Shown: piece after piece, positions 14,301 to 64,000 of the stretch
How positions within the stretch are numbered: position 1 is the stretch's first letter
Layout: every line of letters starts with the position of its first letter
Assembly (NCBI GenBank): GCA_964035545.1
Contig: OZ037767.1
Span: 15,901,092 to 15,965,091 of the forward strand
From: Bugula neritina
Lineage: Eukaryota; Animalia; Bryozoa
Direction: 5' to 3'
Length of the DNA stretch: 64,000 bases
Notes under the pieces: model-generated
What the model was told of the DNA's origin: nothing
Databases searched by the model: none
Seen by the model: the letters and a program-made list of their open reading frames with translations, nothing else
Made by a program: the position numbers and the translations under genes

Positions 14301-17300
14301 CAATGTTTTTCGTATCTGTACTTAGTTACTTGTTTGGGTTAAGGGCAATACTATTCACACTTGCGAGTTTTCTGATGTGCGGTTTTTGTAAAGGTGGAAG
14401 ATAATTTTACTATATATTAATTGTGTTTAATATGTAGCTGTCATACTTCTCACTTAGCTTTCTTTATATGACTCAATTATTTATCTGTTCAGTGTAAGAG
14501 TGCTGAGAGTTTAACTGAATCACTGATGATATATCTAAGAGTATAACTGAGATTACAACTCATAGTGTAACTGAGACTCTTACTGACAGTGTAACTGATG
14601 ATATAAATGATAGTATAACTGACTAGTGTAACTGAGAATATAACTCAGAGTATAACTGACAGTATAACTGAGAGTATAACGTATCAGACAAGAAGCCGAA
14701 GAAGAAGTACTATCCGGAAGCACCCGAACCGAAGTACCAGGTGAAGGAGTACGTCTCCACTCTGCTGCTCTACTCCGGAGGGAAGTCCTACCTGCCTAGC
14801 GGGAAGAAGACTCTCTTCCTTCAGCAGGTGATTTCAGGACAGAGTCATGCCTCTCCTCAGTACATGGTGAGTGTTACGGGACGGGTGTTCACCCTCCCCG
14901 CTTTCTCACTCAGTCTGTTTCAAGAATATTGCTAAGGCATAAAGCTACTTTCACCAACCGCTTTTTATAGTCCAAATACGTGTTTTAATACAAATATCGG
15001 CTAACATTTTTATGCATATTGTTTTCTGTTGGAATAAATATATACTACGTATTCAAAAGAAAATTAATGGAGCAGCCGTGGTCTAGGGATTAGAGCGTTT
15101 GCCTAGTAAGCACGAAGTCATGGGTTTGAACCCCTACAAAGGCTATTGGTGATGTTAAGAAGAGCATCAAGTCATAATTGTTCCTGTGCTACATATGAAT
15201 AAGTCCTTAGCCCAATTTAAAAGAACACTTTTCATCAGTGGTTCTCAGTGGCTGACTATAAACTTGCATGAGTTTTTAAAGAGATTTATTGCGTACTGAT
15301 TTTGTGTCTGTGTGTAGGATTGGAATGACCTAAGCTCCGCCCCACAACTAGTCCTTGACCTAGTTCAGTTCAGTCACAGAAGGTCGGCTCGGTCCTCCGT
15401 GTCGCCCGTGAAATACTCACATCTGACCAATCACAGGCTAGATGGCCCGATCACTACGCTCTCTCCGATAGCCGAGGACGTGGGCTCCGCCCATCAGATG
15501 AACGGAGTGGAGCAACTCGACACACCCCCTTCTTACTCCAAATGTATGTCAGTCTAACAGGAAATACTTGTCTAAATACTAGTCTATTTCCATTGGCACC
15601 ATTTATCAACTTTAGTGTTGTGTTATGACTCATGCAATCTGCACTTAGTTGTACGTCACAGCCATATCCGTGTAATCTTATACAGTTTTTTGTTACGTAA
15701 GCCATTTTCTTATTTGCGAGTGTTCGTTTTGGTGCCACATTTAAGTTTTTATAGTCCGTAATCATATGATGCAGTAAAAGTTGAAAAACAAAGACTTAAG
15801 TCGTGTAATCATGTCCAAAGTCTTGCGTGTTACCCAATTTTTGTTTCATTTTCTTACGTTTTATTTCTTTTTGTTTACTTCTGTCAGTTTAATGCCAGAG
15901 CTTAATCTTAGCCTTAGGACCTAGCAGCCTCTTCTTTTATTAACTTGGCGTGTATATCATCCCCCGTACTTTCTATTGCAGCCACAGATAAGTTATATTT
16001 TGTAATGCAATGTAAAGGCTCCTCACAGACGACCTTTCAAGAAGGGTTCACCTGCCCGTTCTGTCTGAAGAAGACCGTCCCCTCTAATATTCTGTACTTG
16101 CTGAAGCACCTTAGGCTATGTCACAACCGTCTGCTGTTTCTCTATAAGGTGAGTATTCAAACTGAGTCGTAGAGCTCAAGGTAATGGTGTCATTTGGTTT
16201 CTCTCTTTTACGGCAAATTGCAGGTTTCAGTAGCCTCTTTGCTATTGGCTGGTCTGGGTGAACTTCACACCTAGATTATCTGCTAAATCATCTAATGCAG
16301 TGTAATCTAGTGTATTATATTCTATGTGTTTGCCTTGACTGTGTTCCACTGACAAAAATATGTGTAGAGGTCGGGAGGCTTGACTACCTCCCCTTGAAAA
16401 GTAGAAATATAAAATAGGATCAGCTGAAAACATGCTCGTATTTATTGCGTGACTATTCTTTCAACACTATCTGTGTTTTTTTGTCTGTAACGGTGCGTTA
16501 TTAAATACTATTTTATTGTTGCAATAATAATAAAGCAAGCTTCAAAAACTATAAAGTGGGCAACTCCTAAGTTTAGAATTTCTTCCTAAACAGATTTACT
16601 GCTAGAAATAAAAATAGAGTAAATGTTTTGATTATTCTGCTAGGAAGCTGATGGCGACCCCGCAATCATCGTCACGGTGAACTTGTACTACGACGGGTCG
16701 CGCTGCGGTAACCCTTTCAGCATCGCACCGACCCAGAAGCACTTGCAGACTCCCATATCTGACTCGTTCAAGAGGGCGGAGCCTATAAGACGAACTCCAT
16801 ACACGGAAGTGCTGAACGTCAGGTGGGACAACTCTACACTACCCTACCCTACACTACACTACCCTACACTACACTACACTACACTACACTACACTACACT
16901 ATACTACACTACACTACACTACACTATACTACACTATACTACACTATACTACACTATACTACACTATACTACCTCTACACTATACTACACTATACTATAC
17001 TACACTATACTACCTCTACACTACCTCTACACTACCTCTACACTACACTACACTATACTACACTATACTACACTACACTACACTACACTACACTACACTA
17101 CACTATACTATACTACACTATACTACACTACACTATATACTATACTATACTATACTACACTACACTATACTACACTACACTATACTATACTACACTATAC
17201 TACCTCTACACTACACTATACTACACTACACTACCTCTACACTAAAATTTAGTCATATCATCAAATCTCCTAATTCCAATAAGAAGTTTGTTTAAGCTTT

Positions 17301-18716
17301 TCAAAATCTACTTTCTCTTAAATATTTGTACGGTTGTAGGATTCTGCGTTGATTTTTGTATCTTTTCCTCTCCAAATATTTTGAATTCAGGGCGAATAGG
17401 AAAAAGATGACATTAGAAGAGTTTTCGCGGCCTGAGCCCCTTCCACTGATAAGTAACTACAGCTCCTTGCTGGGCCACAACAGGTAGGAGTTGGCTATTT
17501 CCTGTTTTGTGGTTGTTTACTGAGTCTACGTGTGTGGCATGTGTCATCACTTGACATGACACATGCTTGCAGGTGTCTGCTGGAATTAATCGTGTCTTTT
17601 CTTATAATACTGTAATACAATGTACTGTTTTTTGTTTCAATGTGAACTTTTCCATATTTCAATAAATTAAATTTGGATAAGTTCTTAAAAGAAAGTATTA
17701 CTTTAGTTACTATTGACATTATTTTTAAGTCTAGAAATTAACGGAATTGCCAGCTCACTGTTCAAGTATATCTTGTGTTATCAGGCGATATTATCACTGC
17801 ATAACCAATCAGCCCATCCTGTCGAATGACTTTGATGTCGACAGCGACGGGGAGGATGCCGAGTGGATGAGGACCGCTTCCAGTCGACTCATTGATGAGT
17901 TTATCGACGTGAACAAAGGGGAGAAGGAGTTGATGAAAATGTGGAATAATTTCATTAGCAAAAACACTCAGTAAGTTACAGTACTACCCAGTGAGTTACA
18001 GTACTACTCAGTGAGTTATAGTAGTACTCAGTGAGTTACAGTACTACTCAGTGAGTTATAGTACTACTCAGTGAGTTATAGTACTACTCAGTGAGTTATA
18101 GTACTACTCAGTGAGTTATAGTAGTACTCAGTGAGTCAAAGTTGTATTCAGTAATGCAATCGCAAGACTATGTTTTATGCTAATATGTCATAACATACCT
18201 CATTATACCATAACAAAGCATATTATAGTTTATGTTATTGTGTATTGTCTTATTGTATTATATTATTGAGTATACTATTTCATATATTACTGTAATTATA
18301 TGCATATATAATATATAGAGTAATATATGCATATAACCATATATTTTTATGATAATGTCAGTGTATGACAGTACTTCATATATTGCTATATTACTGTAAT
18401 ATTATATTACAACAATACTTCATATATTACTATATCACTGTACTATTATATTACACATCAGTATACGACGTGCTGTTACAGATACATATCGGACACCCAG
18501 ATGGAGGCAGCCTGTCTCAAGTTCGTCTCTGAACATAGTGAAATCTTGTCCTTCAAGTTACGAAACAACTTTCTCTGCCACTTGGCTACAATGTACGACT
18601 GCGGCGTGTTGCAAGCCCGCAGCATCAGGAACATTATTGACTCTATGCCGAAGAAACCCACCGGAGTTAAATCCAAGCCTCCGCCAAACGGCGGTGTCCT
18701 CACATGCAACATCTGA
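11348..18716 (+). CDS. SUZ12: Polycomb repressive complex 2 subunit SUZ12 (divergent), 13 exons, ~678 aa
   Basis: Exons: 11348-11368 (tentative first exon), 11865-12135, 12403-12446, 12701-12771, 13259-13427, 14026-14221, 14688-14866, 15318-15543, 15982-16148, 16644-16822, 17391-17483, 17785-17970, 18482-18716; total 2037 nt in frame. Motifs: PIFLQRNLVYL, LLKNCYKRRK, C2H2 finger CPFC..LLKHLRLCHNRL, YDGS..GNP, PIRRTP, and VEFS box GHNRRYYH..DVDSDGED.EW..IDEFIDVNKGEKELMKMWN..LRNNFLCHLATMYD. Confidence 0.92.
14493..14680. repeat. ~12-bp minisatellite (GTATAACTGAGA/CA) running up to the SUZ12 exon-7 acceptor
   Basis: Direct reading. Confidence 0.85.
15071..15263 (+). mobile_element. tRNA-derived SINE family A
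   Basis: Pol III A box (GTGGTCTAGGGATTAG) and B box (GGTTTGAACCC), then a conserved body ATTGGTGATGTTARGAAGARCAT..GTCATAATTG..TAAGTCCTTAGCCCA shared with 38898-39103, 19543-19830 and 59358-59558. Confidence 0.8.
16830..17243. repeat. (ACACT/ATACT)n pentanucleotide microsatellite in SUZ12 intron 10
   Basis: Direct reading; source of the YTTLH-repeat ORFs. Confidence 0.95.
17966..18136 (+). repeat. 20-bp minisatellite (ACTCAGTGAGTTATAGTACT) beginning at the last SUZ12 donor site
   Basis: GTRAGT recurs at 17971+20n, n=0-8. Confidence 0.92.
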
Positions 18717-37187: not shown

Positions 37188-45654
<8,467 letters not shown>

Positions 45655-46418: not shown

Positions 46419-46865
46419 CGGAATTCTAAACAACAATATTAAAATTGAATCTTTGCAAAAGCATGCTCGTATCTCAGGTATAAGCAAACAATAATTGAAG
46501 AAACTTCAGAATAAAAGAGCAAAAGCAAATTGGATTAAAGTACTCTACTGCTCTACATTTATGTTGGATACATTATATAATGAATAATTCTAGAAATTTA
46601 GGAACATCTAAATGATAAATAGAACAAATTTTCAAGCTATTTTAATAAAGTACAATTGAAAATATTTTTTCCAATAAGGTGTATCATATATTTTACTGTC
46701 TGAGCAATGTGTACACAGAAAAATTAAATAACCTGCAGAAGCTTTTTTTGAAATATAAATAAACTCGTGATCCAAGAGTTTATCAGATCTATGCATGCAT
46801 TCCATGGCGCACATTTGCACATTTGTATGTTACTGTTATAGGATCTTTATTTTCTGTTAAAGTAT

Positions 46866-47215
46866 TGTAGTGAGTCATGCAATGTACTAATATGAGAATC
46901 GTCCTCTCTCCGTTCTGGGAATACTAAGGCCCCTATGTAGTAACCAATCAGCAGCACCGGAAGATATGCTTCCGACTCACGTGACAGTTCCCGGGCAATT
47001 GACAATGATCACGTTGTTGTAAGCGAGGGCTTGAAGCGGAAACATGTGTTAGTAGTTGACTGATGTATAGGATAATTTGATGTAATGTTTGCTTTGTATT
47101 GTATTGTGGATAATAAACATAATTACTCGACAGCTACCCTAGTAATTGCTAGTAGAATAGCCAACTAAATACGCAAGTAGATAACTCACGCACAGTAATT
47201 GCACGAATTACTACA
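46866..47215 (+). repeat. 5' LTR
   Basis: Direct repeat of 51755-52104; AATAAA at ~47112. Confidence 0.95.
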
Positions 47216-47216
47216 G

Positions 47217-47234
47217 TGGTGGCAGCGGTGGGAT
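47217..47234 (+). other. Primer binding site complementary to the tRNA-Leu 3' end
   Basis: TGGTGGCAGCGGTGGGAT is the reverse complement of ATCCCACCGCTGCCACCA, the 3' end of animal tRNA-Leu(AAG/TAG) as recalled. Confidence 0.85.
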
Positions 47235-47250
47235 CTTGCGTATAGCAGTC

Positions 47251-48198
47251 ATGGCAGAAGACGGCACGGAGCTACCCATTCCACTGAATGAAGGTGAGGA
47301 AGATAATGTTGATATACCTGTGGAACCAGTAGTGTTAGAAGAAGTGAGAATTCCTAGAGAGCCCGGTGAGGATAGATACCGGCTGAAGGCGCCCACCTTC
47401 ACAGGCGAGGAAGCCAGGGAGCAATTTATCTAGGAATTCCAAGATGTGATGGAAGTTGCACGGTGGCCACCAAGGGTGGCGTTGCTCAAACTCAGGATGG
47501 CGCTGACGGACAAGGCCAAGCCATACAGAGCAGAACCTGACATAGACGGGATTTTTGCTTCTCTGCGGGCCCGTTTTGGTATCTCCACCATAGACGCGCG
47601 GGCCCGCCTACAAAGGCTGCGGCGTGATCCTCACACGCCGCTACAGGAGCACGCTACCACAGTGTATACGCTGGCGCAGATCGCGTTCCGCGATCTGCCT
47701 CAAGAGCACCGTGAGAGGTATACTTATGATGCCTTCGTGCAGTCCATCAACGACTTGGGACTCCACCATCAGTTCCAAGCGAGGGGAGTCACCACGGTCG
47801 AGGATGCACTTGCGGTGGGAGAAGCCTACCTCTTGGCGACTCATATGCACCGCAACCGCGTGGCCTCCCGCCAGGTGGCCACGGAGCACACTACTGCTCA
47901 TACTGAACCAAATGCGGAACCCTCCGCGGCGGCTAATGTGAACCAGATGTCACTAGCATCGAAAGTCGCACGGATGACTGACATGCTAGCTAAACTGGTC
48001 GCCGCATTAGTTCTCCCAAGCCAGGTAGATACCGCCCGTGAGCCTAGCGGGCCGCAGGTACATTCACCAGGCACGGGGCATAACTTCTGCTGGGGATGCG
48101 GAAGGTCAGGACATTTCCAGAAGAACTGCCCTCAACTCCAACAAGGGTTAAACTACCACGGCCCGCAGATGTTCCCACCTCCTGCGGGCCGCCGGTAA
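47251..48198 (+). pseudogene. gag: Gypsy gag (capsid plus CCHC knuckle) with one in-frame TAG at 47431-47433
   Basis: ORFs 47236..47433 and 47446..48198 are in the same frame. KAPTFTG..EQFI*EF..W motif and CWGCGRSGHFQKNC zinc knuckle. Confidence 0.88.
48147..48191 (+). promoter_or_regulatory. -1 programmed ribosomal frameshift signal (gag to pro)
   Basis: Heptamer G TTA AAC in gag phase, 5-nt spacer, then a perfect 10-bp stem CGGCCCGCAG/CTGCGGGCCG; the pro ORF is in the -1 frame. Confidence 0.75.
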
Positions 48199-50093
48199 AT
48201 CACCCAGGGAGGACCGCGCGTCTGCCGCCCCGCTGGGCGCCGCGCGGAGATGCTGTGAAGTGGCGACCCCCACGGCAAGAAGGATGCTCAAGCCACTCGC
48301 CACCTGGGTCCTCTATGCAACTCCAACACGGATCCGACAGACGGTTGATCTTAGAGCCTGCGAGGGAAACGGTACAGGCGCCGCAAGGCGTACCGCCCCA
48401 ACCTCGGCGGCTGGTCAATAGTCGTCGCCAACCGTGGACCCCTCGACCCACAGCGAGGGAGGTGCAACCACGACACATACAGCTGCAGCCACACGGAAGT
48501 AGCTACTTCCTGTCAGGAAAGCTAGCTGGCAAGCCTGCCAACTTCCTTCTGGACTCGGGCTGCACCACTAACCTCCTTAGCCGTCAATTCTTTGACACCC
48601 TCAGCGCTAAGGTCAAGGACGGGTTGGCACCGTATGAGGGGGATCGTGGCACCCTGGCAGACGGGTCGTGCATTCCCTTCTACAGCATTATTGAGCTGAC
48701 TGGTTACATCCGTAACCAGGCCATCCAAGAGACGTTTATTGTCGGACAGCTCAACGAGGATGCTATCCTCGGGATGCCATTCTTACAACGACACAAATGT
48801 CGCATCGATTTCAGTAAATCTGCGATGATCATGGGCAACAGGGAGCTCGCTTGTGTCGATAAGTTTGGTCGTCCTCTAGCGGGAAGAGTGCAGGTAGTAC
48901 GGAGCTGTACGATACCAGGCCACTCCCGGGCTACCGTCCGCTGTAAAGTAGACGGTGGCCAAACCTCTAAGTTGGGAGTTGTCGAAAGTACGCACTCAAG
49001 AATCCAACTTGCCCATAGCTTTAGCCGGCTTACGAGACAAGGAGAGATCTCAGTGCAGTGCGTCAACCCCTCCTCAGAGACGGAAAACCTACCACCCAGG
49101 TCCATGCTGGGCCGCTTCCATCCTGTCCAGGAGGAAGCCATTGGGCCGTCGTTGGGAGCTACAACGGAAGGTCTTCAGCAGAGCCCGTCTCAAGGGCGGA
49201 GGATCGTCCCAACCCACGCCTCCCATCTTCCAGGGACGCGTGGCTACACAGGCAACAGAAAGCGCCAGGCTATGGCTATGTTGCCACACAGGTACAGTGG
49301 GGCGCCCCGCCACACAGACCACGACGCCTGCCTAAATAGAGCAGGCCGTCGTGAGGTACCACGGGCAGCGGAGACCGCCCCTACTCAGCAGCCCACGAGG
49401 AGGTTGGGCTCGAAGGAGAAGAGCAGGGTTCTCCCACGGAACTCAGGCTAACTCCAACAGAGGGCTGACACGCCCCCGGAGGCCGTCCAGAGCCTCCGCG
49501 CCAAACCTGTATGGGCTGGTAACGTTATGGAGCTGCCGAAACTCCAGGAAAGCTTACCTGGGGTGGTAGCCTACGTGTACCGAGCGAAACAGGAAGGGCG
49601 ACGACCCAGTGGTAGACAACGGCGACAGGGATGCGCCGAGTTACGGCTGTACTGTCAACGTTGAAACTCCCTACGGGTCGGGCCAGATGGTCTGCTGACC
49701 ATGACTTTGGCCGCCAACAGCAGACAACCAGCCAGGAAGAGGATCGTCTGCCCAGCTGCCATCCGCCGGGAGTTGATATGGGACACCCACGAGCAGACTC
49801 ACGGAGGAGTCCAGGGGGTGGTCACCAAGCTACAACTCCGGTGGTACTGGCCCAACATGGAGCGGGACATCCGGCGCAGAGTGAGATGGTGCGAAGTCTG
49901 CCAGACCAACAAGCATAGCCGTCTCCCTGGTGAAGCCCACCGCCCCCAACGTCAAGCCTGCCATCACCACCACTTCCGGAACCGGAAACGGGCCCGGAAG
50001 TGCAAAAACCCCCCGTGGGAGGGGCTTGTACGGAGATACCAACGTAGGAACAACCGTCACAAACAGGCTGGAAAAACCACTCTTGAGACATAA
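48150..50093 (+). pseudogene. pol: Internally deleted pol: aspartic protease, vestigial pre-RT linker and integrase HHCC zinc-binding domain
   Basis: FLLDSGCTTNLL..AILGMPFL protease, and IVCP..RRELIWDTHEQTHGG..WYWPNMERDIRRRVRWCEVCQ integrase Zn domain in the same frame, separated only by stops at 49449 and 49662. No YxDD, RNase H or DDE motif is present. Confidence 0.85.
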
Positions 50094-50744
50094 CAATCCA
50101 CGGGTGAGCACACCGCCTCCCACAGTGACGACGCCTCTAGGACCACACACTAGGCAACCCCCAGCGTGTCTCGGAGACTTCGTACGTGACCGCGTTGCAA
50201 GCGGCAGTTATGAAAGTCTAGCGAGGTCTTGCAGGGGAAAACAGGCAAATAGACGTGGGAGTTGTGAACACCATGAAAATCTCAACTTTTGCCTCGGCGG
50301 AATCACACACGAGATTCATCCGCTGGAAGTAAAAAGCCCTAGTCACGCTTCACAACCACGCTGTCCGGTCTTTTCCTACATTGATGCAGTCAAGAGTAGA
50401 CGTGCCACTAAACAGTAATCATTTACCGCTCTCATTCCAAAATTTCTTACTATTCTGGATCGAAGGGTGAGTTAATTATGTTTTTGGTACGAGAACTAGA
50501 GATTCGATAATGAAACACAGTGGTGGGAACACACGTCGACTTTGATTTTAAATAATCTGCCATAGCGAGTGTGTTCTCGATCAACTATTCATTAGCCTGA
50601 ATCTCACGAGTGTAGCTGAACAGAGTACCTGTCAGGCTGTACACGCTGGCGGTACCTCAGTGTATAATCTTTAACACTGCTACTTTTTCAGATCACATCC
50701 GAGTGACCACCTCCCGGTCACGGGACCAGCCAACCCCTCTACCT

Positions 50745-51458
50745 ATGGAAGAAGAACCTGTGATGGAGAATGGCTTACCTGTGGTGCTTCGTCAACGACA
50801 CCGCTGGGTGTCACCCACGACGGAAAGGAGAATTGAGGAAGCCTGGGGATCAAGTGGACCCCACCGGACCTGCCAGGTCTGTTTCCAGGAGTGCCCGTCA
50901 CACCGCTCCCTGTGTCTGCATGTAGACGCACACTTCCTACTACATTTCTGCCCATGCGGGTTCCACGATGTATACCCGTACCCTGTGATTGTCCATAAAT
51001 TGAGCTGCTTTGCCGGAGAGGGCCACATCGTAGATGAGGACAGCTTCCCCCAGTACCTAGACACCATCAAGCCGGTCATCAAGAAGGCTATCACCCTGAC
51101 CGCACTAGCGTCAGGATTCGAAGTACTGCTGTTATCCGCCCGCCATAAGTCTCCTATGGTTCAGGGCCCATCCACTACTCCCGTCAACCCTAGCAACACC
51201 TCCGAATCCAAAGGAATGACGATACCCCCAATATCAGAGACTGCTACAACCCCATCAAGGCCTAGCCGGTTGGCTAGTGTAGAAGAGCGGCTTGTAAAGC
51301 TACAAGCCGAGTTTACGCAACTTGCCCCTGACCTGCTGGATACGACGACAGGCCTATACCAGCTGAAGGATTTAGTGGGGCGACTGAAGCGGAGGCTACG
51401 TGTCCAACAGGCTCGACACAGGTCACGCTCGCTACAAGAGTCAGAGCCCACCCAATGA
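50745..51458 (+). CDS. LTR-element accessory ORF3: tandem C2H2/C2HC zinc fingers plus C-terminal coiled coil (237 aa from ATG)
   Basis: Intact ORF between the pol remnant and the PPT. CQVC-x12-HVDAH, then CPC-x12-HKLSC, then heptads LASVEERLVKLQAEFTQL..LYQLKDLVGRLKRRL. Upstream candidate intron 50467-50691. Confidence 0.7.
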   Translation: MEEEPVMENGLPVVLRQRHRWVSPTTERRIEEAWGSSGPHRTCQVCFQECPSHRSLCLHVDAHFLLHFCPCGFHDVYPYPVIVHKLSCFAGEGHIVDEDSFPQYLDTIKPVIKKAITLTALASGFEVLLLSARHKSPMVQGPSTTPVNPSNTSESKGMTIPPISETATTPSRPSRLASVEERLVKLQAEFTQLAPDLLDTTTGLYQLKDLVGRLKRRLRVQQARHRSRSLQESEPTQ

Positions 51459-51744
51459 GTATGCCTGGGGTAGGCACCTTTCGGTGGAATGTATCCTCGT
51501 CTGGAAAGTGACGAGTGCACCGACATTGGCCCGCGTGCTGGTAAGCACCCTCTCTCTCTATAGCTGACTAGCTGTGTGTGTTCGACCACCCTGTTTACTT
51601 CTATAAATGTTTGTGTACTCAACTATTTCTCTTCTTTCTTTTTTGTGGGTTTACTTATGTATTCTTTTTTTTGGATTATTGTATTGTTTTTTCTTATATG
51701 TGTTTTTTTGTGTGTTGTGTTAACAGAAAGTAGGGCTTTCTGCT

Positions 51745-51754
51745 GGGGGGGCGG
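51745..51754 (+). other. Polypurine tract
   Basis: GGGGGGGCGG immediately before the 3' LTR. Confidence 0.75.
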
Positions 51755-52104
51755 TGTAGTGAGTCATGCAATGTACTAATATGAGAATCGTCCTCTCTCC
51801 GTTCTTGAAATACTAAGGCCCCTATGTAGTAACCAATCGGCAGCACCGGAATATATGCTTCCGACTCACGTGAGAGTTCCCAGGCAATTGACAATGATCA
51901 CGTTGTTGTAAGCGAGGGCTTGAAGCGGAAACATGTGTTAGTAGTTGACTGATGTATAGGATAATTTGATGTAATGTTTGCTTTGTATTGTATTGAAGAT
52001 AATAAATATAATTACTCGACAGCTACCCTAGTAATTGCTAGTAGAATAGCCAACTAAATACGCAAGTAGATAACTCACGCACAGTAATTGCACAATTTAC
52101 TACA
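51755..52104 (+). repeat. 3' LTR
   Basis: Direct repeat of 46866-47215, followed by TSD GTAT. Confidence 0.95.
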
Positions 52105-52950
52105 GTATTACGTAGCCGCTAAAATTTTTTTAGTAAAGAACTTTTTAGAGGCACTATAAATATTGTAAAAAAAAATAATCAAATTTTAAAAAACAAATTA
52201 CTGTGACCAGAGTTGAAAATGAAATAATCTATTGAGGTAATAGTAAGCCATGTTAGAACTTTATGTCTTACTTCTTACATGGTTTGGCTTTTGGTTTGAA
52301 ATTGAAGCAATTATACAATTATCTTGATGAAGTTAATGTTAAGAACGTCTACTAGGCAGCTCATATAACACAACATATTTAGAAATATATTAATAAGTCA
52401 CCAGTGTAATATTATAGCACAAAGAATAATTTTCCTCTTAATATAAATACATATTACTAGGTTTAGAAACACTAAATACTTAGAAGTTACTGAATATTGT
52501 GGTCAGCTGCATAAACTCTTACAATCTTTTTTTATTTTTTTCTCTAACATGTTGCATTTTTACCTGCTAAACACAAGTTATACAACATTTTCGGGTTGAA
52601 ATTAACATTTAGCTTCAATTTACAACCAACAACAGCTCTGCAATATTAATAAGTTTAATAATCTATTATAATAAGTGATATAGCCTGTTCAAAAATGCTG
52701 AATAGAAAGTTGAATAATAGCGCTGAGTAGTATACTAACTAATGTAAAAACTCACAAAAGTTTATATATATAAGTCACTATCCCTTTGAGAATCCCTGAT
52801 AGAAAGAATCTTTTAAAGCAAGCTAGTGACTTATTCATATGTGACCTAAGAAAGCACTTAAAATCTAGAGTGCTCAATAATTCAATACTGGCCAGCTATG
52901 ATATTATTTTATACATTCGATTAGAATAATAACAAACAATAGCAGTAATA

Positions 52951-53717: not shown

Positions 53718-61797
<8,080 letters not shown>

Positions 61798-63500: not shown

Positions 63501-64000
63501 TCACAACTCAACAGGTGGAGTTGGATCATAACCAAATACTTCAAAGTCATGCTTGTACAAGTTTTGTAGCTGAGTCAGCTCGTCTAGAGAGAGCTGGTTG
63601 TACCAGAAACTGAGAGGATGTGTTTTGGGTGTTCTGTTATGGTGGGAGAGGGTAGAGTTGATATTAAAGAATTTAATGATTTCAGCCATATCTTCAGTAA
63701 AGTGTCGGAATTCCCCGATTATTGTGTAGTTAGTAGAACATGGTAAAGCGAGATGAACTTGAGGTGCCCAATGTTGGTCCAAAAGTATACTAGCATTTCT
63801 GGAAGACAAATTGGAGTAACTAGATTTAGCCCTGTCTATGATGCAACCCACAAACTCTTTAAACGTTAGTATTGTGTTATTATATTGTGACTGGGTGTTC
63901 AGCCAGCTACATGGTCTGCTGAAAATCTTCACGTATTGTCCGTTGTTTTCAACTGCTTTGTTTTTGTATGCCGACACAAGTCTGTCGTAAGGGTTTCTAA
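63501..64000 (-). CDS. Carbohydrate sulfotransferase (CHST8-14 / Sulfotransfer_2 family), 3' part; 5' end lies outside the window
   Basis: The frame is open from 63998: RNPYDRLVSAYKNK (3'-PAPS-binding motif), LTFKEFV, HWAPQ..PC..NY..IG, LYKHDFEVFGY. Confidence 0.88.
   Translation of the reverse strand, partial: RNPYDRLVSAYKNKAVENNGQYVKIFSRPCSWLNTQSQYNNTILTFKEFVGCIIDRAKSSYSNLSSRNASILLDQHWAPQVHLALPCSTNYTIIGEFRHFTEDMAEIIKFFNINSTLSHHNRTPKTHPLSFWYNQLSLDELTQLQNLYKHDFEVFGYDPTPPVEL

Follow-up and report, generated by a model that had tools for sequence, protein, structure and literature searches.

A gene that is almost certainly a real, spliced accessory gene, here called ORF3, lies in the env slot of a young Ty3/Gypsy LTR retrotransposon of Bugula neritina. 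The element occupies positions 46866-52104 of the window, the whole stretch of 64,000 nt that was analysed, and ORF3 is located between the integrase and the polypurine tract (PPT) and encodes a product other than env. The protein combines a compact two-finger domain with a C-terminal coiled coil, and it is probably a regulator of the element's own expression. More tentatively, at a probability of about 0.38, it may by analogy be a Rev/CERV-like regulator of the balance between RNA export and splicing. The function of most env-slot ORFs of LTR retrotransposons is not known, and CERV is one tested case. With ORF3 there is a second protein family that follows the expression logic of CERV; it is apparently unrelated and widely distributed.

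The element and its third reading frame

The structural marks of a Ty3/Gypsy element, namely paired TG...CA LTRs, a target-site duplication, a primer-binding site (PBS) and a PPT, were all present. The features of the element, of ORF3 and of the surroundings were as follows.

37475-45651 and 54454-61794: CUB-CUB-trypsin protease genes flanking the insertion
46862..46865 and 52105-52108: left and right copies of the 4-bp target-site duplication
46866..47215, plus strand: 5' LTR, 350 nt, TG...CA, 11 mismatches to the 3' LTR
47217..47234, plus strand: PBS
47251..48198, plus strand: gag, one CCHC knuckle, stop at 47431
47251..47293, plus strand: coding part of exon 1, 14 Gag codons and one base, phase 1
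47294, plus strand: donor D1, inside gag, the top-scoring GT of the element
48084..49451, plus strand: pol remnant with aspartyl protease, ending where RT and RNase H are missing
49476..49928, plus strand: pre-integrase linker and integrase H2C2 domain, stop at 49662, 35% to P0236 139-284
50442..50466, plus strand: short upstream coding exon of a second isoform, ending at donor D2, without a start codon in this copy
50467..50691, plus strand: GT-AG intron of 225 nt, seen as a joint in a run X1 contig
50692..51458, plus strand: main exon of ORF3, phase 1, 254 full codons and stop, internal Met at 50745
50790..51101, plus strand: compact two-finger domain (Trp-helix, two fingers, strand and helix)
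50871-50933, plus strand: C2H2 finger 1, C43-x2-C46-x12-H59-x3-H63
50949-51008, plus strand: CxC-H-C finger 2, C69-x-C71-x12-H84-x3-C88
51270..51443, plus strand: coiled coil with an Arg-rich end
51735..51754, plus strand: PPT region
51755..52104, plus strand: 3' LTR
63504-63998, minus strand: sulfotransferase

The divergence of the two LTRs (11 mismatches over 350 nt) gave an age of about 1.6% change per site. The PBS, which we take to be of the tRNA-Leu type, recurred as an identical 19-mer after the LTR of a distant locus, L008. The copy has lost RT, RNase H and the integrase core, the last of these after about position 49935, where contigs of sequencing run X1 had loose ends at 49935/49936. 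The protease precedes the integrase, as far as the order PR-RT-RH-IN can be followed in a copy from which RT and RH are deleted, and in the relative P0236 the RH lies before IN. A further deletion joint in run X1, 50049-50139, had a depth of 640, which suggests an amplified sub-lineage of internally deleted copies. The insertion sits between two tandem CUB-CUB-trypsin genes, and the window also holds exons of a SUZ12-like Polycomb gene at 15918-18713 (Zn_SUZ12, VEFS box).

The first-pass annotation had described a stop-free ORF of 237 aa that was not env, without a signal peptide or transmembrane helix, and both descriptions agreed with our results as far as hydropathy and Pfam show. The frame contained no stops from 50616 to the stop codon at 51456-51458, and translation from Met 50745 gives 237 aa. 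This Met was kept in 34 of the 40 homologs scored. Codon 50442 is not a start codon in this copy, and the equivalent position is the initiator Met in the relatives P0108 and P0235. No env family was matched in Pfam, and the maximum hydropathy over 19 residues was 1.42, located in an amphipathic helix.

ORF3 had also been contrasted, as an intact gene, with a gag and pol that carry stops. An open frame of 254 codons arose by chance in 3 of 5000 base shuffles. The stops at 47431 and 49662 were present, but the contrast was not significant, because there were only 2 stops in about 1020 codons of the gag and pol remnants and because a neutral frame of 254 codons would have remained stop-free with P=0.60 at the LTR-derived age. 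For the same reason the intactness of ORF3 in a single copy is no evidence of selection, and the window protein itself deviated at 7 columns that are conserved at 85% or more. The suggestion that ORF3 was retained after the loss of RT and IN was thus not supported; intactness is expected from the age of the copy, and the conservation described below reflects selection in active lineages.

Two donors and one acceptor

Splice sites were ranked by a rough matrix scan of the whole element. Among 306 GT sites, D1 at 47294 ranked first and D2 at 50467 (AGG|GTGAGT) second, and the acceptor ending at 50691 was joint first of 375 AG sites. The gag ATG is at 47251 and D1 follows 43 nt downstream, so that D1 is in phase 1, matching the phase of the acceptor. 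D2 is also in phase 1, so that both donors fit the single acceptor. Splicing from D1 would give a Gag-leader fusion of 14 + 1 + 254 = 269 aa, and this form is open in the window copy because the gag stop at 47431 sits inside the intron.

The donor at 50467 and the acceptor at 50691 had been predicted beforehand from the sequence, and a contig of run X1 skipped exactly these 225 nt with GT..AG ends (joint 50465>50691, cut +1). With a depth of 843, the joint was the deepest, the other joints listed being at 79-294 apart from the one deletion joint at 640, and it was the only GT..AG joint among the best 15 of 19 and the best 15 of 39 joints. Its depth was about nine times that of the flanking single-copy contigs (92-93). 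The flanks were covered without differences at that depth, and the run is therefore probably genomic DNA, possibly from the window's own sample. The joint came from one contig with 28 letters on its short side, against a caution line of 30, and we give it weight because it matches the earlier prediction to the base.

Homologous proteins, which were called without splicing and from samples other than that of the window, recorded the same junctions. The N-termini of P0108 and P0235, which form one 90% cluster, matched the frame at 50445-50468 and were joined to ORF3 at the right spacing. P0012 begins with the first 14 residues of Gag, 12 of them identical to those of the window, joined at the same acceptor; it is the one protein that supports the junction from the gag donor, which was not among the joints listed for run X1. 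Thirty-eight stored proteins contained the motif at the acceptor position, and these comprised 28 that read through the intron, 2 with the D2 exon (one cluster), 1 with the gag exon and 7 chance matches. DNA copies that lack the introns are most readily explained as products of reverse transcription of spliced RNAs; if P0012 or P0108 came from a transcriptome, this would be an equally good sign of splicing. The first-pass annotation had proposed that ORF3 is expressed from its own spliced transcript. That it is spliced, and the exact intron, held up, and what had been overlooked was the stronger donor at 47294 with its Gag-leader fusion.

Two further AG sites, 50389 and 50415, lie upstream of D2, and use of 50415 would give a cassette exon of 51 nt with phase 1 at both ends, placed between the gag donor and ORF3, of which there was no sign. 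The third-ranked donor, 51541, lies in the 3' UTR, and a U-rich tract upstream of the PPT terminates in AG (51541-51726). This stretch is possibly a 3' UTR intron or a U-rich element.

A two-finger domain in elements and host genes

Both finger patterns, the Pro/Ser/Thr linker and the coiled coil of Leu heptads with a basic end were found as had been claimed. Finger 1 follows the classical C-x2-C-x12-H-x3-H pattern with a beta-beta-alpha fold. The two-finger domain of 104 residues was modelled with a pLDDT of 91.7 and a pTM of 0.78. Residues 142-167, the Pro/Ser/Thr linker, were disordered in the model and were followed by a long helix, 175-233, in which 12 of 17 a/d positions of the Leu heptad were hydrophobic compared to 2-7 in other registers.

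No Pfam family was found at the cut-off for the window protein, Foldseek gave no match at E 0.001 against the PDB and viral models, and a comparison with the Atlas returned generic C2H2 or unnamed clusters only. The profile and structure-model check that had been proposed for ORF3 did yield tandem C2H2 matches. All 60 PDB sequences listed for the family profile were C2H2 zinc-finger proteins, the best being HIC2 with an E value of 7.6e-8. The top 17 structural neighbours of the domain were zinc-finger/DNA complexes, the best with Z 4.5 and an rmsd of 3.2 over 58 residues; there were none at Z>=5, and the matches covered the fingers only. Compared to Kruppel-type C2H2 proteins (HIC2, Kaiso, SALL4, ZBTB7A), ORF3 has the same two beta-beta-alpha fingers in a similar relative orientation, but it differs in its short linker, its CxC second knuckle and the C/H last ligand, and in the flanking Trp-helix and strand-helix, which make it one compact domain.

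Classical DNA-binding C2H2 proteins have a seven-residue linker between fingers and a polar base-contact residue at helix position 6. In ORF3 the linker has five residues and the second knuckle is shortened to CxC. Among 56 fingers from very different elements, the helix of finger 1 was basic at positions 2, 3 and 5 (93, 71 and 79%, respectively) and hydrophobic at position 6 in 82%, a pattern that differs from the base-reading C2H2 code.

When 540 candidate proteins were compared with ORF3, 123 scored E<=0.001. The 120 close homologs listed were all unnamed and without Pfam domains. With the family profile, 118 cluster representatives were reached, of which about 70 are distant, and a profile of the two-finger domain found 53 proteins, all of which had been found before. 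Over the 120 close homologs, conservation was 0.80-0.84 in the fingers, 0.86 in the coiled coil and 0.88 in the basic tail, compared to 0.52 in the linker, and the eight zinc ligands were conserved at 85-99%. In 31 diverse rows seven zinc ligands were invariant, four of the seven by the rule used to select the rows. At the sequence level, this modular conservation is the pattern of purifying selection.

Subfamilies with 55-84% identity have open frames, and distant elements with about 25-30% identity carry the domain in the same slot. In P0236, an RNase H-integrase-SH3 order is followed by the two-finger domain and a coiled coil in one frame of 1460 aa. At locus L008 the domain lies in an open frame of 726 codons whose stop falls just before the PPT, and an LTR-like stretch and the same PBS follow. 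The locus also has a protease and a gag that is 34% identical to that of the window over 270 aa. Because of the contexts of P0236 and L008, ORF3 appears as an env-slot gene across a deep clade that includes a member with an intact integrase. The claim of an element-borne zinc-finger/coiled-coil gene that is not env was thus borne out both within the family and in distant elements, in one of them (P0236) after an intact integrase. At L008:1-4530 the order ORF3-PPT-LTR-PBS-gag-protease indicates a head-to-tail arrangement with one shared LTR, and a slippery heptamer was seen by eye before the gag stop.

Coiled coils and basic clusters recurred in distant members despite little sequence likeness. 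A C-terminal coiled coil was found in 23 of 42 distant tails, some of them redundant, compared to 61 of 2100 shuffles, and basic clusters in 24 of 43 compared to 9.7 expected. The idea of an RS domain was rejected for the set analysed, which had 71 RS/SR dipeptides against 90 expected. The distant subfamily of P0148, P0160, P0164, P0197 and P0225 has an acidic Leu-rich N-terminal motif, which by eye fits the consensus of an export signal and an acidic activation domain alike, and several of its members have PxVxL after the fingers. In a search for related loci, none of 267 pattern matches in metagenome contigs was confirmed as a relative, and viral contigs gave no relatives. A DNA pattern matched 14 times in metagenomes, with 1 true locus, and 7 times in viral contigs, with none. 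In a search of mainly open-access literature, no description of the family was found. That Gypsy elements carry spliced accessory genes in the env slot is already known; the ORF3 family is a case that has no Pfam entry.

The domain also occurs in host genes, namely XP_067940963/4 and XP_067944745 of Watersipora subatra and KAF6040922/3 of Bugula neritina, all uncharacterised. They share the two-finger domain with ORF3, once or twice, and in some the C-terminal coiled coil, but they are cellular genes with an N-terminal domain of their own that is 27% identical over 291 aa between Watersipora and Bugula. The first-pass annotation was supported as regards an element-borne accessory gene and had missed the host genes that share its domain. 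In a tree of 64 domains (108 columns) the host genes fell at three places, with weak deep nodes. In the protein set, the bryozoan host genes that carry the domain once or twice, all uncharacterised, are P0130/P0231, P0189, P0237 and P0251. The locus tags of the two Bugula genes are consecutive, and both genes have the N-terminal domain in common with one Watersipora gene.

Candidate functions of ORF3

Expression of retroviral and errantiviral env uses a subgenomic splice whose donor is close to the start of gag. ORF3 resembles env in its position and in a splice that connects the 5' end of gag with an acceptor downstream of pol, but it has no transmembrane segment or env family match by hydropathy and Pfam, and its product looks nuclear. 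That env is a spliced product is also stated in PMC10309623, where CERV of Cer1, a Ty3/Gypsy element of C. elegans, is reported to be required for nuclear export of gRNA. According to that paper, CERV is encoded by five exons and has 517 aa, a C4-type loop and domains of the H, M and G-protein-like types, and it is without homology outside nematodes (PMC10309623). Both CERV and ORF3 are non-env ORFs that lie behind pol and ahead of the 3' LTR, with a leucine zipper, a zinc-binding motif and a candidate NLS. Both have a spliced mRNA with an N-terminus shared with Gag, for ORF3 on the basis of the phase match and one protein, P0012, and both are predicted to be oligomers. In contrast to CERV, ORF3 is encoded by two exons, measures about 270 aa and combines tandem C2H2/C2HC fingers with a C-terminal coiled coil; it also has a second donor, to which a short exon of its own belongs. 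When the architectures were compared by description, ORF3 had neither the H, M and G domains and C4-type loop nor the length of about 517 aa. ORF3 would thus work like CERV while being apparently unrelated to it. The family offers a confidently modelled domain, splice junctions preserved in copies that lack the introns, and hosts whose genes include the domain. With it, the frequency of Rev- or Tas-type regulators in retrotransposons can be tested directly, as can the movement of genes of this type between elements and their hosts.

The Rev/CERV-like role is preferred because ORF3 shares logic and parts with CERV and because the finger surface is constant and basic and does not vary with the LTR. 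The Arg-rich tail on the coiled coil, a candidate counterpart of the RNA-binding motif and oligomerisation segment of Rev-like exporters, was conserved over the 120 close homologs. By this model the ORF3 product is likely nuclear, probably oligomeric, and may bind RNA. Transcripts from the LTR would be spliced by default from the strong gag donor, giving the 269-aa Gag-leader form. The protein would oligomerise through the coiled coil, enter the nucleus through the basic clusters and use the Arg-rich tail together with finger 1, on its basic face, to bind intron-containing RNA of the element. As D1 is the highest-ranking of the GT sites, the genomic RNA must evade a strong splice, and bound unspliced RNA would escape splicing or leave the nucleus, as with Rev and CERV. 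Output would shift toward Gag/Pol mRNA and a packageable genome. Spliced RNAs keep the PBS and the PPT, and therefore some would be reverse-transcribed to intron-less copies.

Doubt about an export role arises because the profile and fold neighbours are C2H2 DNA binders, because no clear NES was found and because no RNA element was distinctive. The search for a conserved NES returned a single class-1a match in a helix of the domain and other matches that fit any amphipathic helix. Simple retroelements, moreover, are not known to depend on a Rev. A close rival, possible although we hold it to be less probable, is a dimeric DNA-binding trans-regulator of the LTR that, like foamy-virus Tas, activates or damps the promoter, with two fingers per chain and four per dimer. 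This would suit the tandem C2H2 neighbours, on which both fingers superpose at 2.4-3.2 Å over 50-58 residues, although the PDB is rich in zinc-finger/DNA complexes. The basic recognition helix, the NLS-like clusters and the bryozoan host genes with the same domain, which look like nuclear regulators, also point to it. Against it stand the five-residue linker and shortened CxC knuckle, the hydrophobic position 6 of a finger-1 helix that hardly varies between elements whose LTRs are unrelated, and a scan of the LTR that found no repeated binding site. A precedent is the 3' ORF of the snakehead retrovirus, which was presumed to be Tat-like and is reported in PMC12193657 to be dispensable for transcription.

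The constant Arg-rich helix would suit a conserved host ligand, and ORF3 could be a chromatin adaptor with nucleosomes or HP1-type proteins as its ligands, acting against silencing or in the targeting of integration. We consider this unlikely. PxVxL followed the domain in 7 of 43 distant tails compared to 2.5 expected, but the tails are related, so that the counts are not independent, and the motif was absent from the window subfamily. The domain of P0236 is in frame with integrase, but that frame may merely be missing a pol stop, and a weak search of 6736 long candidates found no other fusion to Pol. A captured fragment of a host zinc-finger gene carried as neutral cargo would agree with the host genes in Watersipora subatra and Bugula neritina and with the intactness expected from the age of the window copy. 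It is very improbable in view of the many subfamilies with open frames, the modular conservation, the conserved acceptor and the distant elements that carry the domain in the same slot.

A broader and rather doubtful proposal is that a widespread Gypsy clade of marine invertebrates consists of "complex" retroelements with a Rev-type feedback switch. The switch would have originated separately from CERV, on the basis of a Kruppel-derived two-finger domain expressed from two alternative donors, with repeated exchange between elements and hosts that involved at least three gene lineages of bryozoans.

A response element was not found in the 225-nt intron, which had a z score of -2.84 and no Rfam match; the intron folds well, but it ranked 4th of 23 equal windows, and its structure was not distinctive. 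Positions 50500-50605 of the intron form a long three-tier hairpin (z -2.84), a weak candidate response element, and the read-through peptides of homologs suggest DNA-level conservation of its 3' part. Outside this intron, 47542-48216 and 48667-48891, within the coding sequences of gag and protease, folded far better than shuffles (z -3.2 to -4.6). These folds are possible packaging or export signals inside the intron of the gag donor.
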